From assembly GCA_036611895.1 (NCBI GenBank), contig GCA_036611895.1_4766.1: a stretch of DNA of 64,000 bases; one strand, given 5' to 3'. Numbering within the stretch: position 1 is the stretch's first letter; each line of letters opens with the position of its first letter. The position numbers were made by a program, and so were the translations under genes. This document shows positions 23,714 through 43,013 of this stretch, piece by piece. The DNA is from a phage. Below the pieces are notes generated by a model, which saw nothing but the letters and a program-made list of their open reading frames with translations, did not search any database and had not been told where the DNA came from.

Positions 23714-24024
23714 GGTTTAAGTACCTGGAATGGGAACACAGGACGTTTACTACGCCACTGGTTCATAGCTAATTCACTGGTTTCAGAACCATCATGTAAG
23801 TCATAGATAAATGAGATTACATAGTCTGGTTCTTCCGGGAAGTTCTCTGTAGAGAATGGTAGCCCAGATTCCTTAAGGATAGGAACCAGTGGTGATTCAG
23901 CATTACAATAGAGGGTAAACTCTTCATTAAATGCCTGGCTTGTCTGAGATACATAATCAATATTACGCATCATCTTATCTACATCAGTAAATGTAGAATC
24001 ATGAACTACTAGAATAGTTTTCAT
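23710..24024 (-). CDS. hypothetical protein (104 aa)
   Basis: ORF track; 4-nt overlaps with neighbours. Confidence 0.45.
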   Translation of the reverse strand: MKTILVVHDSTFTDVDKMMRNIDYVSQTSQAFNEEFTLYCNAESPLVPILKESGLPFSTENFPEEPDYVISFIYDLHDGSETSELAMNQWRSKRPVFPFQVLKP

Positions 24025-24275
24025 ACCTTTCTTAATGTCCCATAGATGTTATTATCGACAATATTCAAATCACAAAAACCAATCTCTTCTTGTCTCCCAG
24101 AGGATACCCAGATATTGTTTTCTGTTAGCTTAGGCTTTTTAGAGAATCCTATTAGTGAGGTATTAGCACTCTTATATTGACGAGGTAGTAATGCTATATA
24201 CTTAACCCAGTGAGGCACTTGAATAGTATGCTTCATATATTCCACAGTCTTGCCTGTAGGATATGTAATAATCAT
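24021..24275 (-). CDS. hypothetical protein (84 aa)
   Basis: ORF track. Confidence 0.4.
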   Translation of the reverse strand: MIITYPTGKTVEYMKHTIQVPHWVKYIALLPRQYKSANTSLIGFSKKPKLTENNIWVSSGRQEEIGFCDLNIVDNNIYGTLRKV

Positions 24276-24632
24276 TTAGTACCTTACAACATATACGGGT
24301 TTATTAAGCCTATTCATGATATCAATCATGTGCTTGGTTCCTTTGGAATTACCATCCCAGAAGCACACAGCAGCATCTGCAAATTCACCCATTTCTTTAT
24401 TCCTACGGAATCCAGCAGATTTGCCATAGGTATCCCATTCAGCAGGGAATACATGTATCTGCATATTTGCAGATTTCCATAGATGGAAAGCTAATATATC
24501 TGCTCCACGAGCCATACCACATACCAATTCTGGGCATTCCGGTATATTCCCTGAATTTACTAACTTCTGTAATTCCTCAATCATACGATTGGTATTTACG
24601 AAGTCTCTCCCACCAGCTACAATCAGTCTCAT
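24276..24632 (-). CDS. SLOG/DprA-LOG-like Rossmann-fold protein
   Basis: 118 aa. RLIVAGGRDF ... GMARGADILAFHLW ... VCFWDGNSKGT resemble the Smf/DprA-LOG (SLOG) superfamily signature. Confidence 0.45.
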   Translation of the reverse strand: MRLIVAGGRDFVNTNRMIEELQKLVNSGNIPECPELVCGMARGADILAFHLWKSANMQIHVFPAEWDTYGKSAGFRRNKEMGEFADAAVCFWDGNSKGTKHMIDIMNRLNKPVYVVRY

Positions 24633-24850
24633 TTCTGATACCCCTGTATATAGTTAATACGGCGAATACGTTGAGTAGATGCCTTAACAGCTATCTGTTG
24701 ATTCTCTTCTTTATGCTGATTATTCAGGATCTTATCCCATTCCTTCTGGTTCCGTTGTTTCTGTAGAATACGACTACACTTCTTATGATTAGCAACTCCT
24801 CTTCCTTTATTGCAAATCGGGCAAATACCATAATTAGTGCTGAACAACAT
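24629..24850 (-). CDS. zinc-ribbon small protein
   Basis: CPICNK ... HKKC motif. Confidence 0.4.
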   Translation of the reverse strand: MLFSTNYGICPICNKGRGVANHKKCSRILQKQRNQKEWDKILNNQHKEENQQIAVKASTQRIRRINYIQGYQK

Positions 24851-24862
24851 TTTGTTTATTCC

Positions 24863-25096
24863 TTAGTAAGTATATTCAAGAGAGGTTTTACCATCTGTAT
24901 GACATACAGATACTTTACTATCTATGAAGTACATCTTGTTATTAATACGTACTTCATCAATAGAGAAATTGCTAAAAGGTTTAGAGTACACCTTACGAAC
25001 AATAGTTCTGTTAGTACCCTTTAGTTTAATTCGGGCATAACCTTTTCGGTCAACGAATATCTCATTACCTACAATTACATCACTGAGGTTGTTCAC
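24863..25096 (-). CDS. hypothetical protein (77 aa)
   Basis: ORF track. Confidence 0.4.
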   Translation of the reverse strand: MNNLSDVIVGNEIFVDRKGYARIKLKGTNRTIVRKVYSKPFSNFSIDEVRINNKMYFIDSKVSVCHTDGKTSLEYTY

Positions 25097-25397
25097 TTAG
25101 TGCCTCCAGTAGTATTTTACGAATAACATTTACATCAGATTCAGTACCAATTAAACCAACAGGTTTACCTGTACTATCTGTTACAAAGGATGCAATCCTT
25201 TCCATCTCTGCTGTAATTAACTTGTCACCACTAATAAGACGATTACGAAGGTAAGCTTCATAAGCTACCTCTACATCTTCTACCGTGGTTCTTTCATTAC
25301 GAGTGAATGGATTACTTAATGGGAAAGGTAAGTGGATACGTATATTCCGGTCAGCTATCTTAGCTGAATGGGGAAGTATACAAACAATTTCATTCAA
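25080..25397 (-). CDS. hypothetical protein (105 aa)
   Basis: ORF track. Confidence 0.4.
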   Translation of the reverse strand: MNEIVCILPHSAKIADRNIRIHLPFPLSNPFTRNERTTVEDVEVAYEAYLRNRLISGDKLITAEMERIASFVTDSTGKPVGLIGTESDVNVIRKILLEALSEQPQ

Positions 25398-25647
25398 GGT
25401 TATTTCTCCTATTTAAATACATATCTAACTATTCAAGAATAAAAAATAGAAGCCCTCCTAATGGAGGACTCCCAGTTCTACTAATGCACCATAGGTTAAT
25501 AGTGCAAACATGGTTATTGAGATAAGCCAGTTCATTTGAACGCATCCGGGTGATTGAAGGTAACAATCTTACGTACTGGTTCAGATGTCTTTTTCTTAGC
25601 AGCCAGACGCTCTTTCATCTTCTGTACGTCTTCTTTGGTTCCCATGA

Positions 25648-25830
25648 TTAATGACTTACGCATGATTTAGTACTCCACATAAAGTTAAAAGGTTTACTGT
25701 TACGTACAATTCTTACAACCATTTGATAGCCATTGAGTTGTACAACACCATAGTGTCGTTTCTGTACACCAGTGTGATACCTACGAAAGATACACTCTTC
25801 AATGGCATCTTCTATGTTAGTGAATATCAC
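25648..25830 (-). CDS. hypothetical protein (60 aa)
   Basis: ORF track. Confidence 0.35.
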   Translation of the reverse strand: MIFTNIEDAIEECIFRRYHTGVQKRHYGVVQLNGYQMVVRIVRNSKPFNFMWSTKSCVSH

Positions 25831-26045
25831 TGGTTCCTCTTTGCAAACTCTTCGGCTTCCTTAGCCCAGAGTTGCTTACGATCTTCTTTAGCTACGATGG
25901 AAGCAAACAGGCATTTAACGAATACAACTGGTAACTTACAAATAAGTACCAGCTTAGTAATTACCCACTTGGCTCCATTGAGAATGTAACCACGTAGGTG
26001 ATAAAGCACATAACAGAGTATTACAAACGCAATGAAGTCCAACAT
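25827..26045 (-). CDS. small membrane protein (72 aa)
   Basis: MLDFIAFVILCYVLYHL hydrophobic N-terminus. Confidence 0.4.
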   Translation of the reverse strand: MLDFIAFVILCYVLYHLRGYILNGAKWVITKLVLICKLPVVFVKCLFASIVAKEDRKQLWAKEAEEFAKRNQ

Positions 26046-31021: not shown

Positions 31022-31711
31022 ATGAGTGAACTAACTAAGCAGCAGATTATTAATGCCTTACCTGCTAACTTCAAAAACAGTGTTACCCAGGAGTTGGTAG
31101 ACACGATTAACAACATAACCCAAGACCAACTGGTTGCTGAGTCCTTTCGTGAAAACTTTATCTCCTACTCTGGTGTAATGAAGGAAGGTAAGTTTAAGAC
31201 ACAGGACTACATGAATGCAGTTCAGTATGTGACTTACAAACATATGGGCTACTCAAATAAGGAAGCCTACTTTAAGACGTTCCCTAATCGACAAGCAGAA
31301 CTTGTTGCACGAGGAACCAGTGAGAAAGATATTAGTGCTTATGTATCTGCCTACCACAGGGGTAAGTTAGTTAACCTCATCATGGAACAAAGTTTGGTTC
31401 CAGTGTGGATTGTGAACCAAGACAATTATCAGAAGGCTATCAACGTTCAGGTTGAACTGATGACTACAGCAGCAAGTGAGAAGGTAAGATGTGATGCAGC
31501 TAACTCTATCCTTACTCACTTAGCTAAACCAAAAGATCAGGTAACAAATATCAATCTGGACTTAAGAGAGAACTCCGGATTAACTGACCTCAAGGCAACA
31601 CTTGCTGCATTAGCTGAACAGCAGATTAATGCAATCAATAGTGGTGTACCTACCAAAGAGGTTGCTGGTTCTAAACTAGTACGTGCAGATGAGGACATTA
31701 CAGATGTCTGA
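31022..31711 (+). CDS. putative terminase small subunit / DNA-packaging protein
   Basis: 229 aa immediately upstream of and overlapping large terminase gene; position only. Confidence 0.35.
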   Translation: MSELTKQQIINALPANFKNSVTQELVDTINNITQDQLVAESFRENFISYSGVMKEGKFKTQDYMNAVQYVTYKHMGYSNKEAYFKTFPNRQAELVARGTSEKDISAYVSAYHRGKLVNLIMEQSLVPVWIVNQDNYQKAINVQVELMTTAASEKVRCDAANSILTHLAKPKDQVTNINLDLRENSGLTDLKATLAALAEQQINAINSGVPTKEVAGSKLVRADEDITDV

Positions 31712-33293
31712 GTTAATTAAACAGGAACTGGATGAGTGGCTAGACCAGGTGGATTACTCCCACCTTAATTCTTCTAACTACGTTCCTAGTCAGTTTGCTC
31801 TTACCTTTGCCAACTTTATTAAGTTGGTTAATGGCAAAGAGGGTGAGTCCAACAAAACACCTCCAGTTCACTTGAAGATGCTGGATAAGATGATTAGTCC
31901 TAACCAGTATGTAGTTAACCTGTGCTTCCGTGGTGCAGGTAAGACTGCTGTGTTCATGGAATACTTTACTTTATTCCTGGCAGTGTTTGGTCACTTACCA
32001 AGCCTGGGTAAAGTAGAAGGAATGATTTACGTATCAGACTCAATGGATAACGGTGCTAAGTCTGCACGTAAGAACATTGAGTTTCGCTACAAGAATAGTG
32101 AGTTCCTTCAGCAATGGATACCTGAAGCTACCTTTACGGATAACCTATTAGAGTTTCGTAATGTAGAAGGGCATCGACTTGGTGTTAAGTTGTTTGGTGC
32201 TAAGACAGGTCTTCGTGGTACGAAGATATATGGTAAACGTCCAACACTTTGTGTACTGGATGACTTGATTAGTGATGGTGATGCTAACTCCAAGACTAGC
32301 ATGGAAGCTATTAAGGATACCGTCTATAAAGGTGTGAACCATGCACTTGACCCAACCCGTCGTAAAGTAATCTTCAATGGTACTCCCTTTAATAAGGAAG
32401 ATATTATCATTGAAGCTGTTGAGTCTGGTGCATGGGATGTCAACGTATGGCCTGTATGTGAGAAGTTCCCCTGTAGTAGGGAAGAATTTCAGGGTGCATG
32501 GGATGATCGTTTCTCTTACGATTACATTAAAGCCCAATATGACATGGCAGTTAAGACTGGTAAGTTGGCTGGCTTCTATCAGGAACTTATGCTCCGTATT
32601 AGCTCCGAAGATGAGAGACTGGTTCAGGATAGTGAAATAAGGTGGTATAGCAGACAACAACTGTTAAGGATGAAGTCCTGCTACAACTATTATATTACAA
32701 CCGACTTTGCTACTTCGGAGAAACAGACCAGTGACTACAGTGTCATATCAGTTTGGGCTTATAGTTCTAATGGAGATTGGTTCTGGGTTGATGGTGTGGC
32801 TAATCGTCAGCTTATGGATAAAAACTTTGATGACCTGTTCCGTCTGGTTCAAGAATACCAACCCCAAAATGTTGGAGTCGAAATCACAGGACAGCAGGGT
32901 GGATTCATCTCACTCCTTCAGAAAGAAATGATTAACCGTAATGTCTTCTTTAACTTTGCATCCTCTGAGGGTGGTAAGCCAGGCATACGTCCTGTAACCT
33001 CTAAGCTGTCACGCTTTAACCTGGTAGTTCCATGGTTCAAAGCTGGTAAGATGTACTTCCCAGAAGAGTTGAGAGATTCAACTATTATGGGTCTGTTCAT
33101 GGGTCAGATTAAACTAGCTACCATTAATGGAATCAAAGGTAAGGATGACTGTATTGATACTATCTCTATGCTGGGTTATCTCAATCCTTGGAAACCACAA
33201 GCAGGTATGACTATGGTGGATAACAAGGGCGACCCAATGTGGGATGATGAAGAAGAAGATAGTGTTAACCCATTACGTTCGTACATTGTGTGA
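31683..33293 (+). CDS. terminase large subunit
   Basis: 536 aa. Walker A CFRGAGKTAV, Walker B TLCVLDDLISD, C-terminal nuclease-like DFATSEKQTSDYSVISVWA. Confidence 0.85.
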   Translation: MQMRTLQMSELIKQELDEWLDQVDYSHLNSSNYVPSQFALTFANFIKLVNGKEGESNKTPPVHLKMLDKMISPNQYVVNLCFRGAGKTAVFMEYFTLFLAVFGHLPSLGKVEGMIYVSDSMDNGAKSARKNIEFRYKNSEFLQQWIPEATFTDNLLEFRNVEGHRLGVKLFGAKTGLRGTKIYGKRPTLCVLDDLISDGDANSKTSMEAIKDTVYKGVNHALDPTRRKVIFNGTPFNKEDIIIEAVESGAWDVNVWPVCEKFPCSREEFQGAWDDRFSYDYIKAQYDMAVKTGKLAGFYQELMLRISSEDERLVQDSEIRWYSRQQLLRMKSCYNYYITTDFATSEKQTSDYSVISVWAYSSNGDWFWVDGVANRQLMDKNFDDLFRLVQEYQPQNVGVEITGQQGGFISLLQKEMINRNVFFNFASSEGGKPGIRPVTSKLSRFNLVVPWFKAGKMYFPEELRDSTIMGLFMGQIKLATINGIKGKDDCIDTISMLGYLNPWKPQAGMTMVDNKGDPMWDDEEEDSVNPLRSYIV

Positions 33294-33299
33294 GGAACC

Positions 33300-34010
33300 A
33301 TGCAAAAATTATCGGAAGTATATCGAGGCTTGGCACTAAGTACCTTAAAAGGTACTGGTGCAGTCACTGATGACAGATTAGATATTGAACCAGATAGTAA
33401 GCCTGAAATATTGGCTGCTATTAATGAAGGACTGGTACGACTGCATAGTCGTTTCCCTCTTAGAACTAATAGCTGCATTGTAGAGATGAAGGAAGGTCGG
33501 ACTGATTATCCTCTACAATCTAAGTATGCTTACTCCAGATTTACTAAGTCTACGCTTGAGATTCAATATCCATATATCATGGATGGGTTCATGAAACCTT
33601 TCCAAGATGATGTTATTAAAATCTTAAATGTGTTTGATAACTCAGGGAATCGCCGTAGACTGAACGATGATTCAGACCCTCATGCAATTTTCACCCCTCG
33701 GCCTGATACTATTCAGTGTATGCGTCCTCGACACTTCGAGGCACTTAACGTAACTTATCAAGCTAAGCACCCAGTACTTACGGGTGATGAAGAACAGGAA
33801 GTTGATTTAGCTGATACGCTAATGACGGCACTTCATAACTGGGTGGGTTATCGTTACCACACTGGTTTGAATACTCCGGAAGCTAATGCTAAGGCAGCAG
33901 AGTATCTGCAAACATACGAAAGCATCTGTGGTGAGGTTGTTGATTACGACCTGGCTAATGGAAGTATTTCAATTACCGAAACTAAATTTGAACAACGAGG
34001 ATGGCGATGA
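33300..34010 (+). CDS. virion-associated protein (236 aa)
   Basis: ORF track; between terminase and tailspike genes. Confidence 0.4.
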   Translation: MQKLSEVYRGLALSTLKGTGAVTDDRLDIEPDSKPEILAAINEGLVRLHSRFPLRTNSCIVEMKEGRTDYPLQSKYAYSRFTKSTLEIQYPYIMDGFMKPFQDDVIKILNVFDNSGNRRRLNDDSDPHAIFTPRPDTIQCMRPRHFEALNVTYQAKHPVLTGDEEQEVDLADTLMTALHNWVGYRYHTGLNTPEANAKAAEYLQTYESICGEVVDYDLANGSISITETKFEQRGWR

Positions 34011-36694
34011 ACGCACACAACCCTTTTGATGCAAAACAGGATTGGACTAATCCTTACTGCCAGAATAGTTCCAATGACCCAATGGTGGATGCACTACTTG
34101 GTAATGCTTACCATGTGGTTCGTACTGTGTACTGCAACCTGGGTAATCTTAAACTCCTGTATGATTTCCTGAACCAGTATGGAATGGTACTTGGTGTACA
34201 GTCTGAGGCAGAACTTAAGGCTCTAACCACTGATGCTAAATATGCACGTATCTATGGCTTCTCTCGTGCAGGTGATCGTCAGGTTACTGACTACCTGTAT
34301 GTGGAAGGCGACCGTACCGGTATTATTCCAGATGACCCAGAAGCAACTGGTTCGTGGATTACTGTTGCTACTACTGGTTCCAATGGGGGTGGTACTTCCT
34401 CCAGTGAGGGTGCTTATATCCCTTGGGTATACAGCAATGGTTCTGCTACTGGTGGGGAAACTTCCATTAACGTACCGGATGGGACAGTAGGTGTACCCTT
34501 TATTATTGTTAATGGTGATATGCAGTATGTAGGGCGAGGTTTTGAGTTTAACGCAGATAACCTTTCCGTAACTCTGGCTCAGCCTTTGGAAGAAGGTGAT
34601 GAAGTAGTATTCCTTCTGACTGGAGTTCCTGCTGTACCGGACAATCCCAATGTTAATGACTGGGTTCAGATTAACTGGTTATACAACAATGGTGCTGCTG
34701 TAGGTGGTGAGCAGGTTATTGCTGTTCCTTATACCTTCCAGTCTATTCCAGCCGTGTATAAGAATGGGCTTCGTTTGTATAAAGGTTTAGCTTCTGAATC
34801 TTATACTGCTGACCCAGATAACCAACGTATTCTTCTTACTGAACCACTGGCAACCAATGACCGATTAATTGTACAGATTGGTGGTGAAGCACAGGTACTG
34901 GAAACATCAGACCATACTCTTCAGGAAGTTGCTCGTGCTACTAACGTTAAGGATAGTGAGGTAATTCTTAGCACTGACACAACTCAATTCCTAAATGGTA
35001 AGAAGATTGTTTACTCTGTTAGTGAGCAGAAGTCCTATAGATTACCTACATTACCTACTAACGTATTTATTTCTTCCGTTAATGGTAACCAACTAACATA
35101 CAATCCTGGTGGGATTGTTGTTGACCTGCTCCCTGCACCTAATGATGTAATTCCAGTGGAGAATGAGTTGCAGGCATATAAAACGGCTATGGTTACTGAT
35201 GGAGGAACATTAGTAAATTCTGGCTTATCTGGTGTTTCTTCTGCAATTAAGCGAACCATTGATAGCCATTTTAAAGACTACTATAACGTTAAAGATTTTG
35301 GTGCTGTTGGAGACGGTGTAACTGATGATACTGAGGCTATTCAATTAGCGGTATCATTCCTTGGAGATTTAACTACTAAAACTATGTTTAGTAGACCATC
35401 TGTACTGTTTTTCCCTGAGGGTGATTACTTAACCAGTAAGCCCATTATCTTGTGGGATGGTGTTACTTTACGTGGGGCATCTCAATCTTCTACAAGGATT
35501 CAGATGACTTCTTCTACTAATACTACGGAAGTCACTACTAATTCCCCTGTTAGGAATCTTCCACGTAATGTTAACTGTATTCTTGCGGTGTTCTCTTCTG
35601 GAACAGGTTACCCATATAGAACTACTATCTCTGATATTCAATTGTATGGTATAGCCGGTACAGCTGGAGTAACTACAGGCAAAGTAGCCTATGCAATCTA
35701 TGCACCGGAAGCAGCATTTCTAACCGTGGAAAGGGTACGCACTTGGTATACAAACTATGGCATTATGTCATATAACCTGTGGATGAGTACTTTTCGAGAC
35801 TTAGATTTACGCGAACATGCTGAGTGGAGCTTCTTACTATCTAACGATAGTACTGGTAGAGGAGGTTCTACATCTATTTCCCTAGAACGGGTATATGGTC
35901 ATACGAGTGAAGGTGGAATTAAACTATATGGGGCCAATTATTCTACATTGTCTTCCTGTGGAGTAGATGCAGCAGGTTCGTCTAATCCCTCCGCAGCGGA
36001 TGCGGCATCTAAAGCCCCATATGTATTTGAAAGTTGCCAGGGTCTTGTAGCCAATTCTTTAGGCGCAGAATCTATTTATACAAGTCGTTGTATCATTGTT
36101 ATTGGCGGGCATGTAACCCTTAATGAGCCTGATTTATACGCTTGGCGTGGTGATGTCACTGGGCGGCGTATGTATGGAGTACATGTAACGGTAAATGGCA
36201 ACCTAGTACTTAATGGTGGTAGGTTATATGGAATTCAGTTCAGAGCAACTGATGCTACCGAATGCTTTGCAGTAGTACAGTCGGATGGTGTTAATGGGTC
36301 TGTTCAATGCAATGGGTCATTAATTTCTGATGCTTCTGTTGACTCTGAAGGTACAGCGATTGGTAATATTTTCTTTGGTTCCCGTACTTATAGAGGCAGG
36401 ACTATTCAGCAAGAAGCAGGGATATCTAGATACCAGACTAATACCTTAACCCTTATTGCAAGTGTTACTACTGGTGATTTATTCTCATCTGGCTTAGATA
36501 CTACAAGGTATACTGTAATAGATGCTGTAGCTCAAATTCATAGTAATTCCCCTACACTAGACCAGGCAAAGCTAAAAGTGCAGGTTATGAATGTCAGTGC
36601 AAATAGTGCTAGAATTTGGATTATTAATCCAGATGGTACTGCTAACTTCACTGCCCAAACCTTACGTGTAACATTCACATATAGAGTAAATTAA
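34001..36694 (+). CDS. tailspike with pectate-lyase-superfamily beta-helix (candidate polysaccharide depolymerase)
   Basis: 897 aa. YNVKDFGAVGDGVTDDTEAIQLAV is a pectate-lyase-type beta-helix N-cap signature common in phage depolymerase tailspikes. Confidence 0.7.
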   Translation: MAMNAHNPFDAKQDWTNPYCQNSSNDPMVDALLGNAYHVVRTVYCNLGNLKLLYDFLNQYGMVLGVQSEAELKALTTDAKYARIYGFSRAGDRQVTDYLYVEGDRTGIIPDDPEATGSWITVATTGSNGGGTSSSEGAYIPWVYSNGSATGGETSINVPDGTVGVPFIIVNGDMQYVGRGFEFNADNLSVTLAQPLEEGDEVVFLLTGVPAVPDNPNVNDWVQINWLYNNGAAVGGEQVIAVPYTFQSIPAVYKNGLRLYKGLASESYTADPDNQRILLTEPLATNDRLIVQIGGEAQVLETSDHTLQEVARATNVKDSEVILSTDTTQFLNGKKIVYSVSEQKSYRLPTLPTNVFISSVNGNQLTYNPGGIVVDLLPAPNDVIPVENELQAYKTAMVTDGGTLVNSGLSGVSSAIKRTIDSHFKDYYNVKDFGAVGDGVTDDTEAIQLAVSFLGDLTTKTMFSRPSVLFFPEGDYLTSKPIILWDGVTLRGASQSSTRIQMTSSTNTTEVTTNSPVRNLPRNVNCILAVFSSGTGYPYRTTISDIQLYGIAGTAGVTTGKVAYAIYAPEAAFLTVERVRTWYTNYGIMSYNLWMSTFRDLDLREHAEWSFLLSNDSTGRGGSTSISLERVYGHTSEGGIKLYGANYSTLSSCGVDAAGSSNPSAADAASKAPYVFESCQGLVANSLGAESIYTSRCIIVIGGHVTLNEPDLYAWRGDVTGRRMYGVHVTVNGNLVLNGGRLYGIQFRATDATECFAVVQSDGVNGSVQCNGSLISDASVDSEGTAIGNIFFGSRTYRGRTIQQEAGISRYQTNTLTLIASVTTGDLFSSGLDTTRYTVIDAVAQIHSNSPTLDQAKLKVQVMNVSANSARIWIINPDGTANFTAQTLRVTFTYRVN

Positions 36695-36700
36695 ACTTTA

Positions 36701-36726
36701 CCCCCCTCTTCGGAGGGGGTTTTACT
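36701..36726 (+). terminator. intrinsic terminator after tailspike 1
   Basis: cccccctc-ttcg-gagggggg hairpin followed by tttt. Confidence 0.6.
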
Positions 36727-36746
36727 AGAAAAACAAAGAGGTCGTT

Positions 36747-38804
36747 ATGAACGAGTTATTCTCACAAGGTGGTAAAGGCTCTACTGGTATTCTTACCAAT
36801 AAACAAGCCATTGCTCGTAAGTTCGGTGTTAAGCATAATGAAGTAGTCTACTTTGCTGTAGGTGTAGACTTGGGTGGTTATAAAGTCATCTATGACAAGT
36901 CTACTCAGCGTGCTTATTCTTTACCTGCACTACCGGTAGGAACCACTGCTGTAAGTCTCAATGTACATGCAGTTCTGGTTCATTCAGCAGGTACAGTTGA
37001 TTTGGGTGAACTGGCTGCTACACGTAGGGAGTTCGTAAACCTATCCGACTCGTTTGCTACCGGTTTAATCGTGAATACTAGAAATGAATTACTATTCCAT
37101 AATGGTATAGGTTACACCTACTTAGGCACTCTACCTGTAACAATTACCGCAGGAATTAATCCAGTTGGCAACCCCGATTGGAAACCTCAGACAGACCCGA
37201 ATTTTGGGCGGGATGAAGTTAATGATGACATTCGTGCTTACGTTAGAGACGGCGATCCCATCGCCCCAGACTATACTCAAGCATTAAAGCGAGCTATAGC
37301 AAGTGGTCGTGGTCGTGTTTACATTAATGTACCTGTTGAGATTAAAGAGGATTTGACAATCCCACGTCTTTTCCGGGTAGATGTAGATAAAAACGGGTAT
37401 ATATACTCAACGACAAATAAAGTTCGTATTGAGGGTTTTATTAACTCAATAGGTGGTGGTGATCCGTATCGCAACTATATCAAACAATACGGGGTCAATT
37501 CCTCTACCGTCCCGGGCGTGTACATGGCTAACGTAGTGGTCAATATCCCGGAAGACTTCCCTACGATGCAGGCCGCTATAGATGCCGTACCGGATAACTA
37601 CTGGCAGTTTATTACCTTGCAGATATCTGATGGAATCTACGACGAAGATTTGGTTATTCGTAATAAGAAGGGTTGCTGCCCTACGTTCCCACCAGCTTCT
37701 GGTCAGCAGGCAATTCTGGTTATCACTAGTAAGTCTAAAGACAGGTCTAAAGTGAGCTTCCGCTCAGCTCAGGTATTTTCTTGCGGTGGTACTCCATTCT
37801 CTCCTAATCTGGAGAACCTTAACTTCACTAACCGTACGCACAGTGATGAGGATTGTTCTGTAGAATTCTACGGCTGCACTAGTGGAGCAGTTAATAAGTG
37901 CAGCTTTAATGGTGTAGGCGTAGACAAGTGCATCGAAGCATACAACAGCATAATTATCGTAGAAGCGTGCCACTTCGGGGATAATATCAACGATAAAGGA
38001 ATGGTAGTTAAGCATGGCGGTACTATCTTGTCTGCCTCTACTCAGATTGGTGGTATACTGCAACCTATTACTGGAACCTTAAAGTCCTGGGTAGCAGTAG
38101 GTATTGGTGGCACTATCATAGCTAACGACCTCAGTTCTTGTATTGGCAAGGTAGCACAGTCTCGCGTAGATGGCGTGCAGTCAGGGGTAATAGTTGAAAC
38201 CGTAAGTAAGAGCATTAACGGAGTAACTAACTTCTTCAGACTAGCTACCACTCGCCACCATACGCAATTCCAGGATTATGACAAGTTCACTAATACTGTA
38301 ACTGGTTCGGGTTCCAGTCTTAATTACTACCCTGAAGGGGGGTTAGTGGTTAATGCGGGTACTGCCGGAGGTACTGCCCTGCTTCGCTATAAAAGAGAAC
38401 GTCGCCTAGTTCGTCAGCATGAAACCTCTAACTATTTAGGCTTTGCTGTAGCCTGCACAGTCCCCAGTGGAGTGACCGCACTTAACTGTCATTTAGTATG
38501 TGGCTCAGTGGAAAGTGGCAACTACTTCGGTATCCGTTATATCAATAATGTCGCTCATGGCGTCATCTGCCGGGGAGGAGTAGAAACTACTACTCCATTA
38601 GCTTATAGCACTGAAACTATATGTACATGGACGTGTAAGTATTTAGGTAAGGGTGATGGTCAAGTATTGTTTATGTATGATGATGTATATGCTGGGCATA
38701 TTAATGGCATTAAGCTTGCTTCTTACGATGGCACGTATTTCGAAGCTAACGTAACCAACGCTCGCACGCAACTGTACGAACTTGAGTTCGTAAGCAGTAT
38801 GTAA
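36747..38804 (+). CDS. second tailspike/tail fibre protein with beta-helix-like repeats
   Basis: 685 aa. Gly/Asn/Val-rich repeats with periodic Cys (GCTSGAVNKCSFNGVGVDKC), Thr/Ser-rich segments. Confidence 0.55.
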   Translation: MNELFSQGGKGSTGILTNKQAIARKFGVKHNEVVYFAVGVDLGGYKVIYDKSTQRAYSLPALPVGTTAVSLNVHAVLVHSAGTVDLGELAATRREFVNLSDSFATGLIVNTRNELLFHNGIGYTYLGTLPVTITAGINPVGNPDWKPQTDPNFGRDEVNDDIRAYVRDGDPIAPDYTQALKRAIASGRGRVYINVPVEIKEDLTIPRLFRVDVDKNGYIYSTTNKVRIEGFINSIGGGDPYRNYIKQYGVNSSTVPGVYMANVVVNIPEDFPTMQAAIDAVPDNYWQFITLQISDGIYDEDLVIRNKKGCCPTFPPASGQQAILVITSKSKDRSKVSFRSAQVFSCGGTPFSPNLENLNFTNRTHSDEDCSVEFYGCTSGAVNKCSFNGVGVDKCIEAYNSIIIVEACHFGDNINDKGMVVKHGGTILSASTQIGGILQPITGTLKSWVAVGIGGTIIANDLSSCIGKVAQSRVDGVQSGVIVETVSKSINGVTNFFRLATTRHHTQFQDYDKFTNTVTGSGSSLNYYPEGGLVVNAGTAGGTALLRYKRERRLVRQHETSNYLGFAVACTVPSGVTALNCHLVCGSVESGNYFGIRYINNVAHGVICRGGVETTTPLAYSTETICTWTCKYLGKGDGQVLFMYDDVYAGHINGIKLASYDGTYFEANVTNARTQLYELEFVSSM

Positions 38805-38813
38805 ATAAAACTA

Positions 38814-38840
38814 AGCCCCCTTAACTGGGGGCTTTTCTTA
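38814..38840 (+). terminator. intrinsic terminator after tailspike 2
   Basis: agccccc-ttaact-gggggct followed by tttctt. Confidence 0.6.
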
Positions 38841-39053
38841 TATAGAGTCTACTGTTTGCATTACCCTAATGGATACTGATGTTAAGATTATTACTTGCCC
38901 AGATATATTAAACATACCCAACTGAATACCATCCACCATGAGTTGATACCAGATACTACGTCTGGATGTATTTCATCATACTAAGTATTATCTAAGAGTC
39001 ATCTTATGATATGACCCTATTGGGGATTCTAACTACACAACTACGGTAATATT

Positions 39054-39383
39054 ATGAATGAATCGGGTGAACTACTCCTAGTCAGACTGGAGGAACGATT
39101 GAAGACTCTGTTTGAGAACCAGACAAGGGAAAGGCAGGACCGTGAGAAACTGGAGGAAACTCTGGTAGAACTACGGGATTCAATCAATGACATAGGCAAT
39201 AGGCTGAAAAATGTGGAGGATAGCTTAGCTAAGAATGAACCTACTATTGAAGAGTTCATTACCATTAAGCATAAAGTTGTTGGTGCTGGGATTTTCGGTA
39301 AGTGGGTATGGGCTGGGGCAGGTGCAATTATTGGTGTATTGGCTGCTGCAAGACGGGAGATTTTCACATGGTTCGCAGGCTAA
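39054..39383 (+). CDS. coiled-coil protein with C-terminal transmembrane segment (lysis-module membrane protein)
   Basis: 109 aa. C-terminal VVGAGIFGKWVWAGAGAIIGVLAAA hydrophobic helix. Confidence 0.4.
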   Translation: MNESGELLLVRLEERLKTLFENQTRERQDREKLEETLVELRDSINDIGNRLKNVEDSLAKNEPTIEEFITIKHKVVGAGIFGKWVWAGAGAIIGVLAAARREIFTWFAG

Positions 39384-39628
39384 AGAGAAAGATTGAGTTA
39401 GTACCCAATTGGAAAAGGTGCTGGAAGTGGGCATCTATTCAGATTAGTACATTTGGATTAATTATGTTTTCTGCCATAGATATCATTCAACCAATGTTGA
39501 CAGGACTACCCCGTCATATCCTGGAAGATATTCCCCATGGTTCCAATATTGCAATCGCACTGTTTGCCTTAAACATTGTAGGCAGATTAATACGATTCCG
39601 ACCAAAGGAAAATTCACATGAAAGCTAA
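39368..39628 (+). CDS. holin candidate (start at internal ATG)
   Basis: ORF track 39302..39628; from MVRRLKRK two hydrophobic helices (WASIQISTFGLIMFSAIDII, IAIALFALNIVG); sits before the endolysin. Confidence 0.4.
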   Translation: MVRRLKRKIELVPNWKRCWKWASIQISTFGLIMFSAIDIIQPMLTGLPRHILEDIPHGSNIAIALFALNIVGRLIRFRPKENSHES

Positions 39629-40253
39629 ACAGAAACTTGCTGCGAAAGGAGGTGCAGTGGGAGGAGTTGTCGCTGCTATCCTGGGGGCAGTGTTCTATAT
39701 GGAAGGGGGATATGTAAACAATCCTCGTGACCCAGGTGGGGAAACTAATCATGGAATTACCCAATCTGTAGCTAAATCTCATAAAGAAGTCCTGGCTACT
39801 GAGTATGGTTGGGATGGTTCTATGAAAGGTTTATCAAAAGAGATGGCTGCTGAGATATACATTGATGACTATGTACTTAAGCCTAACTTCGTAGCCTTCG
39901 CTGATATATCTCCTGCTGTAACACACAAGCTGGTAGATGCTGGTGTTAACACTGGTGTAACCCGTCCTGCTAAGTGGTTGCAGTTATCTCTTAATGAAAT
40001 GTCCCGTAATGGCAAAGACTACCCTAAAATACAGGTTGATGGTAAAGTCGGTACAAGTACTGTTAATGCATATAAAGCATTACAGAAAAAACGAGGCAAA
40101 GTTGCAGCATGTCAGGTAATGATTAAGTTACTTGACGCCAAACAACTGAACCACTACACCTCATTAAACATGCCAGACTTTACGTATGGTTGGGTAGCTA
40201 ACCGAATAGGCAATGTGCCACTGGAGGCATGTAATGAAGATGCTAATCTCTAA
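39618..40253 (+). CDS. SAR endolysin, glycoside hydrolase family 108 N-acetylmuramidase-like
   Basis: 211 aa. Gly/Ala-rich N-terminal signal-anchor (GGAVGGVVAAILGAVFY) followed by EGGYVNNPRDPGGETNHGIT GH108 signature. Confidence 0.7.
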   Translation: MKAKQKLAAKGGAVGGVVAAILGAVFYMEGGYVNNPRDPGGETNHGITQSVAKSHKEVLATEYGWDGSMKGLSKEMAAEIYIDDYVLKPNFVAFADISPAVTHKLVDAGVNTGVTRPAKWLQLSLNEMSRNGKDYPKIQVDGKVGTSTVNAYKALQKKRGKVAACQVMIKLLDAKQLNHYTSLNMPDFTYGWVANRIGNVPLEACNEDANL

Positions 40254-40742: not shown

Positions 40743-43013
40743 ATGGAACACCAAGACACTTTTAAGCCTTTACCAGACCCGGCTCAATCAGAGAAGTTAA
40801 CGGACTGGAAGAAGGAACCAAGTATCCAATTACTGAAAGGTGATTTGGAATCAGCTAAACCTGCTCACGATGCAATCATGGCACAGATTCGTGAGTGGAA
40901 TGACCTGATGGAAGTTAAGGGTAAGGCTAAACCCCCAAAGGTTAAAGGACGATCCCAAGTCCAACCTAGACTGGTTCGCCGTCAGGCAGAGTGGCGTTAT
41001 GCTCCATTGTCTGAACCATTCCTCTCATCCAATAAACTTTTCAAGGTAACCCCTGTAACTTTTGAAGATGAGTTAGCTGCACGTCAGAATGAATTAGTTC
41101 TTAACTACCAATTCCGTACTCAGCTTAATAAAGTAAAACTGGTAGATGATTATGTTCACAGTATCGTAGATGACGGTACTGGTATTGCTCGCATTGGTTG
41201 GGAACGTAAGACTGTTAAGATTAAAACAGAAACTCCAGTCTTCCAGTTGTATCCGATTGAGAACCAAGAACAAGCAGATATTCTTCAGCAGGCTTTACAG
41301 CTTCAGGCAGAAAATCCTCGTGAGTATGATGAAACAATGCCCGAAGATATTAAGGAAGCTGTTAACTACTTCAATGAAACTGGAGAAGCTACCTATGCAA
41401 TCCAGACTGGTGTTACTGAGGTAGAGGTAGAGAAAGCACTGGTTAACAGACCGACTGTTGAAATGCTTAACCCCAATAACGTAGTTATTGACCCAAGCTG
41501 TAATGGGGACTTGGACAAAGCTTTGTATGCAGTTATCTCGTTTGAGACATGCAAAGCAGACCTCATGAAGAACAAGGACCGTTACCACAATCTGGATAAG
41601 ATTGACTGGGAAAGTTCTAGTCCTATGACTGACCCAGACCATGAAAGTAAAACTCCTAGTGACTTTCAGTTTAAAGATGCACTACGTAAGAAAGTAGTTG
41701 CTTATGAATACTGGGGATTCTACGACATCAATGATGATGGTTCGCTGGAACCAATTGTTGCTACCTGGATTGGTTCTACTCTTATCCGTATGGAGAAGAA
41801 CCCATTCCCGGATGGTAAGTTACCGTTGGTAGTTGTTCCTTACATGCCACGTAAACGTGAACTCTATGGTGAAGCTGATGCTGAATTGTTAGGTGATAAT
41901 CAAGCAATTCTTGGTGCAACTATGCGTGGGATGATTGACCTGTTGGGTCGAAGTGCAAATGGACAACGTGGTTATCCTAAAGGGATGTTAGATACCCTTA
42001 ACCGTCGTCGTTATGATGATGGACAAGACTATGAATACAACCCAATGCAGGGTAACCCTAGTCAGGCCATTATGGAACATAAGTTCCCTGAGTTACCTCA
42101 GTCGGCAATAGTAATGACTCAGATGCAGAACCAGGAAGCAGAAGCACTAACAGGTGTTAAAGCATTCTCTGGTGGCGTAACTGGTGAAGCTTACGGTGAT
42201 GTTGCTGCTGGTATTCGTGGTGTACTCGATGCAGCATCCAAACGTGAGATGGCAATCCTTCGTCGATTAGCTAAGGGTATGGCAGACATTGGTACTAAGA
42301 TTTGTGCAATGAATGCTGTGTTCTTATCTGAGAAGGAAGTGGTACGTATTACTAATGAGCAGTATGTAGAAATTAACCGTGAAGACCTTAAAGGTAACTT
42401 CGATATTGAAGTTGATATTAATACTGCTGAGATTGATAACCAGAAATCTCAAGACCTGAGCTTCATGGTTCAAACGTTAGGTAATACAGTGGACCAGACT
42501 ATTACGTTATCTCTTGTAGCTAAGATTGCAGAACTTAAACGTATGCCTGACCTTGCTCATGAGTTACGTACCTGGCGACCACAACCAGACCCTATGGAAG
42601 AACAGCTTAAGCAATTGGCAATTCAGAAAGCACAGCTTGAGAATGAAGAGTTGAAAAGTAAGATTGCACTCAATAATGCTAAAGCGAAAGAAGCTATTTC
42701 TAGTGGTGACCTTAAAGACCTGGATTATCTGGAACAGGAATCTGGTACTAAACATGCTCGTGATATGGAGAAACAAAAAGCACAATCTCAAGGAAACCAG
42801 AACCTTCAGATAACTAAGGCGTTGACAACACCTACTAAAGAAGGTGAAACTACCCCCAACATATCTGCTGCTGTCGGATATAACGCTTTGACTAACGGGA
42901 ACTCTTTACAGGAACGTGACTTAGCTGCACAGCAAGACCCGACTTATTCACTTAGTTCCCAGTATTATGACCCTAGCCAAGACCCAGCATCGGCTCTTGG
43001 TATGAACTTATAA
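40743..43013 (+). CDS. portal protein
   Basis: 756 aa; size and position upstream of scaffold and major capsid genes, matching N4-like late-region synteny as recalled. No motif-level confirmation. Confidence 0.6.

Follow-up and report, generated by a model that had tools for sequence, protein, structure and literature searches.

A gp66/gp63.1-type tailspike pair with exchangeable tips, predicted to form one branched complex, in a G7C-like Escherichia coli phage

Contig GCA_036611895.1_4766.1 of GenBank assembly GCA_036611895.1 holds a phage sequence, of which we analyzed a stretch of 64,000 nucleotides (nt), referred to here as the window. Two consecutive open reading frames (ORFs) in this window encode proteins of 897 and 685 amino acids (aa), here called P1 and P2, and their coordinates and strand are exactly those claimed in a preliminary description of the sequence. 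We conclude that P1 and P2 are very probably the gp66-type and gp63.1-type partners of one branched tailspike complex, whose exchangeable, predicted beta-helical tips would process polysaccharide. The preliminary description treated them as two consecutive spikes. Both do appear to be spikes, but they probably belong to a single branched complex rather than standing independently on the tail. P1 and P2 are the right genes for predicting or engineering the host range of this phage, and the result leaves the current understanding of branched tailspike systems unchanged.

Predicted partners of one branched complex

Prokhorov et al. are said to have described, in 2017, a branched tailspike complex formed by gp66 and gp63.1 of phage G7C. 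In that phage, gp66 attaches to the virion, its N-terminal region fixing the spike, and gp63.1 binds gp66 to give a stable branched complex for which the XD3 domain is required (PMC8825819). A comparable complex of phage B2, consisting of the adaptor gp49 and the spike gp48, has been solved by cryo-electron microscopy (PMC11654681). The defining features of the system include, besides the gene neighborhood described below and the binding of the second spike to XD3 of the first, a gp66 anchor with domains XD2 and XD3 in one partner and a head of the type seen in gp63.1 and tailspike protein 1 (TSP1) in the other, and we found the former in P1 and the latter in P2. Because both interacting parts are conserved, a branched complex is the best-supported reading of the pair.

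P1 matches the tail protein family phrog_12242 over aa 3 to 486 (E = 2e-280). Its aa 1 to 404 are 70% identical to G7C gp66, and from aa ~400 onward P1 is not similar to gp66. The N-terminal part also aligns with gp82 of Shigella phage Moo19 (aa 1 to 391; PDB 9d80_D; E = 5e-158) and with B2 gp49 (aa 16 to 379; PDB 9d83_D; E = 1e-137). The tail-anchor domain and a Gly/Ser-rich linker are followed by XD2 and XD3, two tandem T4-gp10-like domains that are visible as an internal repeat (aa 140 to 208 versus aa 224 to 296; 33% identity; E = 5e-13) and that match TSP4-N (7rej) and TSP2 (6w4q) of CBA120. By analogy with G7C, XD3 is expected to be the docking site for P2. The head (D1) domains of the two proteins are also related (P1 aa 307 to 372 versus P2 aa 20 to 84; 33% identity; E = 3e-9), so the earlier view that the two sequences are unrelated does not hold for the heads.

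P2 is present at NCBI as an exact protein, MEF6482073.1, annotated as "hypothetical protein [Escherichia coli]." Over aa 1 to 141 it is 65% identical to G7C gp63.1, and the sequence encoding its head has 86% nucleotide identity to Gamaleyavirus ZQ2. For the head (aa 1 to 143), a phmmer search retrieved G7C gp63.1 (4qnl; E = 2e-51), CBA120 TSP1 (4oj5; E = 1e-50), and B2 gp48 (9d84; E = 8e-49; P2 aa 1 to 142), together with CBA120 TSP3 and TSP4. The D2 domain of such heads seems to exist in two variants, and Pfam PF18668 matches aa ~91 to 156 of two relatives (P0002 and P0004).

In the proposed assembly, P1 would form trimers that are held on the tail by their N-terminal anchor and that present two T4-gp10-like XD domains. 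The P2 head (aa 1 to 143) would then dock on P1 XD3, as judged from G7C deletion mutants and from the B2 gp48/gp49 structure, placing two different enzymatic spikes at each tail position. Each beta-helical tip would bind and process a surface polysaccharide, most probably O-antigen, and the two tips together would set the host range. Their action would lead to specific, reversible adsorption and to passage through the O-antigen layer (reviewed in PMC10743462).

Several known systems can be compared with the pair. The G7C gp66/gp63.1 system (PDB 4QNL) has the same genus-level backbone and gene order and related N-terminal parts, with a hairpin after each gene. However, both C-terminal tips of P1 and P2 are unrelated to those of G7C, no SGNH esterase domain is present in P2, and P1 has drawn its tip from the pool of Kuttervirus TSP2 tips. 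The four spikes (TSP1 to TSP4) of Kuttervirus (CBA120-type) phages share XD2/XD3, D1/D2 heads, and beta-helix bodies with P1 and P2, and the SenALZ1 group has the same hairpin and ribosome-binding site (RBS) between TSP2 and TSP1 as lies between P1 and P2, but these phages are myoviruses whose spikes are anchored through TSP4. SenALZ1 TSP2 itself, unlike P1, has no gp66 anchor domain, and the XD domains of the two proteins show only weak similarity. Shigella phage B2 (gp49/gp48) and phage Moo19 (gp82) provide the N-terminal matches noted above, and B2 offers an adaptor-spike complex in a Schitoviridae phage (PDB 9D80 to 9D84; PMC11654681). In contrast to P1, B2 gp49 is an adaptor only (410 aa) and has no tip; B2 belongs to a different subfamily, Humphriesvirinae, and the B2 and Moo19 spikes differ from P1 and P2 in being esterases. 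The tailspikes of P22-like prophages of E. coli and Citrobacter (PF09008 plus beta-helix) share the P2 module at 53 to 69% identity over 98% of the tip, but they carry a P22 head-binding domain where P2 has a gp63.1-type head, and they belong to temperate podophages.

Table 1. Positions in the window of the tailspike genes and their parts, of the mosaic blocks, and of the neighboring genes
Feature	Position	Strand	Basis or detail
P1, gp66-type primary tailspike, 897 aa from ATG 34001	34001-36694	+	ORF; phrog_12242; identity to G7C gp66
P1 tail-anchor domain, aa 1-~125, then Gly/Ser-rich linker TTGSNGGGTSSSEG	34001-34375	+	Alignment with Moo19 gp82 and B2 gp49; limits approximate
P1 tandem T4-gp10-like XD2 and XD3, aa ~138-298	34412-34894	+	Internal repeat; CBA120 matches
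P1 head (D1) domain, aa ~305-385	34913-35155	+	Similarity to P2 head; left crossover inside
P1 receptor-binding module, aa 428-897 (cap motif, predicted right-handed beta-helix, small C-terminal beta domain)	35282-36691	+	PF12708, AF2, Foldseek
Conserved junction	36696-36752	+	Hairpin 1, then CTAGAAAAACAAAGAGGT (RBS), ATG of P2
Hairpin 1	36702-36719		CCCCCTC-TTCG-GAGGGGG then TTTT; UUCG loop; RNA free energy (dG) -15 kcal/mol
P2, gp63.1-type secondary tailspike, 685 aa	36747-38804	+	ORF; exact protein MEF6482073.1
P2 head domains D1-D2, aa 1-143, expected to dock on P1 XD3	36747-37175	+	phmmer; identity to gp63.1; nucleotide identity to ZQ2
P2 rare receptor-binding module, aa ~153-685	37205-38801	+	
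Hairpin 2, bidirectional, terminator-like	38813-38834	both	AAGCCCCC-TTAACT-GGGGGCTT then TTCTT; dG -16.7
ZQ2-type backbone	33000-35038		91%
SenALZ1 TSP2-type block	35048-36724		85-98% in most windows of 100 nt, 73% in a single one
ZQ2-type block, P2 head	36737-37204		86%
Block similar to neither ZQ2 nor SenALZ1	37205-38827		
ZQ2-type block	38828 onward		92%
Large terminase	31683-33293		
gp67-type (N4 gp67-type) virion/adaptor-like protein, 236 aa	33300-34010	+	PF24175, phrog_2125
gp63-like protein	39054-39383		
Putative holin	between gp63-like gene and endolysin gene		
GH108 endolysin	39618-40253		
Rz	between endolysin and portal		
Portal	40743-43013		

As a side observation, the segment from 33997 to 34010 offers two in-frame ATGs for P1, at 34001 and 34007. 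The second is probably the true start, which would make P1 895 aa long and the 897-aa reading 2 residues too long, because it has GAGGA 5 nt upstream, overlaps, as ATGA, the stop codon of the gp67-like gene before it, and is the start used in the NCBI record MEF6482072.1 ("glycosyl hydrolase family 28-related protein," 895 aa). An exact protein look-up found P1 as read from ATG 34007 and did not find it as read from ATG 34001.

Fold, chemistry, and likely substrate of the tips

Structure prediction with AlphaFold2 (AF2) and Foldseek searches gave a right-handed beta-helix body and tailspike matches for both P1 and P2, in agreement with their preliminary designation as beta-helix tailspikes. 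The cap motif that had been noticed in P1, FGAVGDGVTDDTEAIQ, indeed starts at aa 433 (nt 35297 to 35344) and lies within a match to Pfam PF12708 (aa 428 to 518; E = 6.5e-20; 72 bits versus a cut-off of 27) that covers the N-terminal cap (profile positions 2 to 86 of 213). In the AF2 model of P1 aa 400 to 897 (predicted local distance difference test, 80.3), the chain folds into a right-handed beta-helix with a small beta domain at its C terminus. Foldseek matched this model best to the tailspikes Dettilon gp208, Acinetobacter phage AS12 gp42 (query TM-score, TMq, 0.54), CBA120 TSP2, and Sf6, together with the AlgE4 epimerase.

The same motif had been taken as a pectate-lyase-type signature. 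The cap does belong to the pectate-lyase-like fold, but PF12708 is a fold-level family that also includes GH55 glucanases, AlgE alginate epimerases, and hydrolytic tailspikes, and it therefore carries no information on lyase chemistry. Assignment to the pectate or pectin lyases (PL1, PL3, etc.) was rejected: the PF12708 cap alone matched, and the NCBIfam result (E = 7.5e-4) reached 17.8 bits versus a cut-off of 1100. NCBIfam yielded no meaningful family for either P1 or P2.

The P2 module is predicted to comprise a beta-helix (aa ~190 to 485), with a pectinesterase-like N-terminal part from aa 269, and a concanavalin/lectin-like jelly roll (aa ~500 to 685). The best whole-chain Foldseek match is CBA120 TSP2 (E = 2e-7). 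The sole Pfam similarity, to pectinesterase PF01095 (aa 269 to 389; profile positions 10 to 126), is below threshold (20.5 bits versus 27) and recurs in 17 of the 23 members of the P2-tip family. When the alignment of this family was used for a profile search of the PDB, it returned only N-terminal adaptor domains and a marginal pectinesterase match (1gq8; E = 0.06). Two enzyme classes were considered for P2 and rejected. CE8 (pectin methylesterase, PF01095) falls below the Pfam threshold and would require the catalytic motifs QDT and DFIFG; these, like GRPW, are missing from P2, though a resemblance in fold remains. An SGNH esterase of the G7C gp63.1 type finds neither similarity to gp63.1 past aa 141 nor an SGNH Pfam match.

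Two further features of P2 were noted in passing. A stretch at aa ~166 to 187 (nt 37242 to 37307), VRDGDPIAPDYTQALKRAIASG, resembles a degenerate copy of the P1 cap motif GAVGDGVTDDTEAIQLAV, and a second, pectinesterase-like cap, FPTMQAAIDAVP, occurs at aa ~270. The distant relative P0151 has matches to PF12708 and then PF01095, in the same order as in P2. The body of P2 may consist of two stacked helix segments.

Invariant acidic residues are found in both tips (D600, D616, D656, E690, and E709 in P1; D367, E368, E373, and E397 in P2), none of them placed in an active site. In P2, the residues H365, S366, D367, E368, E373, K394, E397, N400, K422, and H423 are invariant in 23 of 23 homologs, and we regard the block from H365 to H423 as a candidate active site.

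The P2 tip is rare. It matches 25 clusters among 5.8 billion proteins, and a profile search of 1.84 billion representatives found ~30 representatives at 50% identity; the latter search was partly swamped by P22 head-binding domains in the alignment, and only hits beyond profile position 265 were used. P2-type tips are mounted on PF18668-type heads in 10 of the 23 family members and on P22 head-binding domains in 6. One example of the latter (P0009) lies in an E. coli P22-like prophage with gp7/gp20/gp16, Arc/Ant, and integrase genes, and distant relatives of the tip have T7-fiber or tail-collar N termini. The best match among sequenced phages is CBA6, with 52% identity. This distribution looks typical of an O-antigen-specific tailspike module, and P22-like prophage tailspikes are an O-antigen-targeting class. 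The family is small and uncharacterized, and one substrate would assign a receptor to all of its members, including the P22-like prophages.

By analogy with characterized spikes, the tips of P1 and P2 would act as depolymerases, with O-antigen as their likely substrate. An E. coli target is plausible for the P1 tip, since phages of the SenALZ1 group have a TSP1 whose subtype has been assigned to E. coli O18A.

Several points weigh against a branched complex of polysaccharide-processing spikes. The AF2 models are monomers of near-certainly trimeric proteins and contain some low-confidence loops, and PDB searches gave no close solved homolog for either tip. The canonical CE8 catalytic motifs QDT and DFIFG are missing from P2, and the receptors assigned in PMC8432352 do not include that of the SenALZ1-group TSP2. 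Docking of P2 on P1 is argued from homology, and Pfam PF18668 (Tail_spike_N, "TSP1/Gp66 N-terminal domain") has no match on P2 aa 1 to 160 at E <= 10. This missing match would suit two independent spikes, each sitting directly on the tail as in SP6/K1-5-type phages with an adaptor holding both. Contact between P1 and P2 is also not provable from sequence, and the gp66-like protein and main spike of Moo19 occupy separate places on the tail. We nevertheless consider independent spikes very improbable: the P2 head closely resembles that of G7C gp63.1, whose attachment depends on gp66 XD3 (65% identity, as above), P1 retains both XD2 and XD3, P2 has no anchor domain of its own, and the two proteins match chains of the solved B2 gp49/gp48 complex at E <= 1e-48. 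Within the branched complex, P2 and possibly P1 could also modify polysaccharide instead of depolymerizing it, for example as a de-O-acetylase or esterase like G7C gp63.1, Moo19 gp82, or B2 gp48/49. The second spike in the G7C-like group can be a deacetylase (PMC10743462, PMC11654681); for P1 and P2 we hold such an activity to be unlikely. Much the same can be said of capsular (K) polysaccharide or another exopolysaccharide as the target in place of O-antigen. Beta-helix tailspikes of the same fold from Klebsiella and Acinetobacter phages, which are among the Foldseek matches, degrade capsules, and Vi or KN2 capsules are the targets of some TSPs from Kuttervirus and Taipeivirus. However, P22-like prophages of E. 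coli and Citrobacter have the P2-type tip on their tailspikes, and the characterized TSPs of G7C-like phages and Kuttervirus overwhelmingly have O-antigen targets.

Exchangeable tips and the conserved junction

Comparison of the region with Gamaleyavirus ZQ2 and Kuttervirus SenALZ1, by blastn and by maps of informative sites, resolves its mosaic structure into five blocks (Table 1). The tips of P1 and P2 are exchangeable cassettes, the variable parts of a conserved backbone. The modular exchange and the role in host range proposed in the preliminary description are thus well supported: the tips vary on the backbone, their boundaries coincide with hairpins, and comparison with related phages reveals the cassettes.

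The P1 tip cassette (aa ~347 to 897) measures ~1.7 kb, hairpin 1 included, and this block is 86 to 98% identical to TSP2 of Salmonella Kuttervirus myophages. Its left crossover, at 35039 to 35048 (aa ~347), falls inside the head-domain coding sequence, and its right crossover, at 36724 to 36737, lies just past the stem of hairpin 1. Both flanks are conserved: to the left lies the sequence that encodes the head domain, and to the right the hairpin-RBS junction is followed by the part that encodes the gp63.1 head. The tip is 93% identical in amino acid sequence (87% in nucleotide sequence) to TSP2 of the Salmonella Kuttervirus phages SenALZ1, selz, Se-F, Se-G, SeTs-2, and bering, it occurs in no other Gamaleyavirus of the phage collection, and among the 15 billion proteins of another collection P1 stands as a singleton. 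The P1 tip ties an E. coli podophage to Salmonella Kuttervirus myophages, and a receptor found for either predicts that of the other. At the right edge of the P2 tip, the ZQ2-like backbone starts again at 38828, within the 3' arm of hairpin 2; ZQ2 has a different stem at this position, followed by an identical T-tract. For tip swaps, the cassette boundaries to use are aa ~347 in P1 and aa ~153 to 165 in P2.

The combination of tips in P1 and P2 appears to be new, but systems of this kind, the modular way in which they evolve, and the hairpin as a boundary were already known. Swapping of the C-terminal parts of gp66 and gp63.1, with a conserved terminator-like stem-loop as the boundary, has been described in the G7C set of phages (bioRxiv 10.1101/542787), and the sharing of tips between Kuttervirus (CBA120 TSP4) and G7C-like phages has also been noted (PMC8432352). 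What we add is modest, namely, the breadth of junction conservation across lineages.

A GC-rich hairpin with a T-run follows the stop codon of both P1 and P2 by 8 to 9 nt, hairpin 2 beginning 9 nt past the P2 stop and marking the right edge of the P2 tip module. Across the 7.5-kb region, 11 terminator-like sites were counted, versus 5.0 +/- 2.4 in shuffles. The hairpin 1 site is annotated as "terminator" in PhAPEC5 and as "repeat_region" in G7C, where the equivalent of hairpin 2 is likewise a repeat_region. Scans of the whole window found no tRNA and no Rfam family, and the hairpins thus coincide with neither an RNA gene nor a known family of RNAs. Each gene had been said to end in its own strong terminator, and a GC-rich hairpin does follow each stop. 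The Shine-Dalgarno sequence of P2, GAGG (~36738), lies ~19 nt downstream of the hairpin 1 stem, with no promoter-like site between them. Given the absence of promoter space and a run of only 4 T's, hairpin 1 must be leaky, attenuating at most and falling short of a fully efficient terminator, if P2 is expressed; the two genes are probably cotranscribed.

The 57-nt junction from hairpin 1 through the RBS to the start of P2 recurs in 151 phage records at 82 to 94% identity. Its carriers span at least three lineages: Gamaleyavirus, many Kuttervirus phages (at the TSP2-TSP1 junction), and Phapecoctavirus. An alignment of seven phages is near-invariant, reading CCCC(T/G)CTT(C/A)GG(A/C)GGGG...CTAGAAAAACAA(A/T)GAGGT...ATGAACGA, and the G7C stem shows a compensatory change from T:A to G:C. 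The sequence 5' of the hairpin is unrelated among phages unless they have the tip in common.

Two of the records call for separate mention. In Phapecoctavirus nieznany (MN850598.1), the junction precedes a 102-aa ORF annotated as "tailspike" that covers only the N-terminal head of a gp63.1/TSP1-type spike; it resembles what is left of a spike cassette, here in a third and unrelated lineage of phages. The 111-kb record OR844942.1 ("UNVERIFIED_ORG: Enterococcus phage Efm 3-10") contains an enterobacterial-phage tailspike junction and a gene starting MNELFSQGG.... Such a junction is unexpected for an Enterococcus phage, and this unverified record may be misassigned or a mixed assembly.

How the hairpins relate to tip exchange can be read in two ways. 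They could be ordinary terminators, or elements that stabilize RNA, and play no part in recombination, the cassette edges falling there only because the conserved flank begins there, and we give this reading about an even chance. Both have the classic form, a GC stem and a T-run shortly after a stop codon, the crossover near hairpin 1 falls in the conserved CTAGAAAAACAA tract after the stem and not within it, and homologous recombination in the conserved flanks is enough to account for the pattern. On the other hand, hairpin 1 has only 4 T's and needs read-through for P2 expression, the hairpin moves along with the cassette from one phage family to another, a compensatory change preserves it, and the authors of the G7C-set study proposed a role in recombination (bioRxiv 10.1101/542787). 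A more speculative proposal, which we advance as a tentative whole, has two independent parts. The junction and the head-coding sequence could serve as universal homology arms, or as a recognized recombination site, moving tips between Schitoviridae, Ackermannviridae, and Phapecoctavirus, with the 1.7-kb block as a recent example; and the P2 tip could carry an O-antigen-modifying chemistry new to tailspikes.

Phage backbone and gene neighborhood

By its sequence, the window is from the genome of a Gamaleyavirus (G7C-like, N4-related, Schitoviridae) phage of E. coli. Bases 40000 to 62000 are 92.6 to 94.3% identical, over 92 to 98% of their length, to nithesis, ShWW44, ZQ2, St11Ph5, and others. 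The order of genes, from terminase through the gp67-like gene, P1, P2, the gp63-like gene, holin, GH108 endolysin, and Rz to portal, is that of ZQ2 and G7C. P1 and P2 thus stand side by side in an N4-like genome, between a gp67-type virion protein gene and the gp63, holin, and endolysin genes.

The gp67-type protein matches Pfam PF24175 (SU10_adaptor; E = 3.6e-6; 28 bits versus a cut-off of 27) as well as the virion structural protein family phrog_2125 (E = 4e-92). Its gene occupies the same position as that of G7C gp67, whose presence in the virion is confirmed, and by analogy the protein may be the platform that holds the spikes.

The phage genome makes up a contig of 72,516 bp in the whole-genome assembly of an E. 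coli, with its proteins annotated as bacterial (MEF6482072.1 and MEF6482073.1). A megablast search of the region against complete E. coli genomes gave no match, so none in that collection has it as a resident prophage. Probably a lytic phage was sequenced together with its host, as a carrier culture or a contamination, and the O-type of that host would be a clue to the receptor.

A noncoding stretch of ~220 nt, unusually long for a tight module, runs from hairpin 2 to the gp63-like gene (38835 to 39053); it is 92% conserved with ZQ2 and holds a weak sigma-70-like site at 38882 to 38909. The G+C content of the window is lowest (0.371) at 24001 to 26000 (24 to 26 kb), where the GC skew is strongly negative. 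The sign of the skew flips at ~28 to 31 kb, the point at which transcription passes from the - to the + strand (divergent early and late modules).

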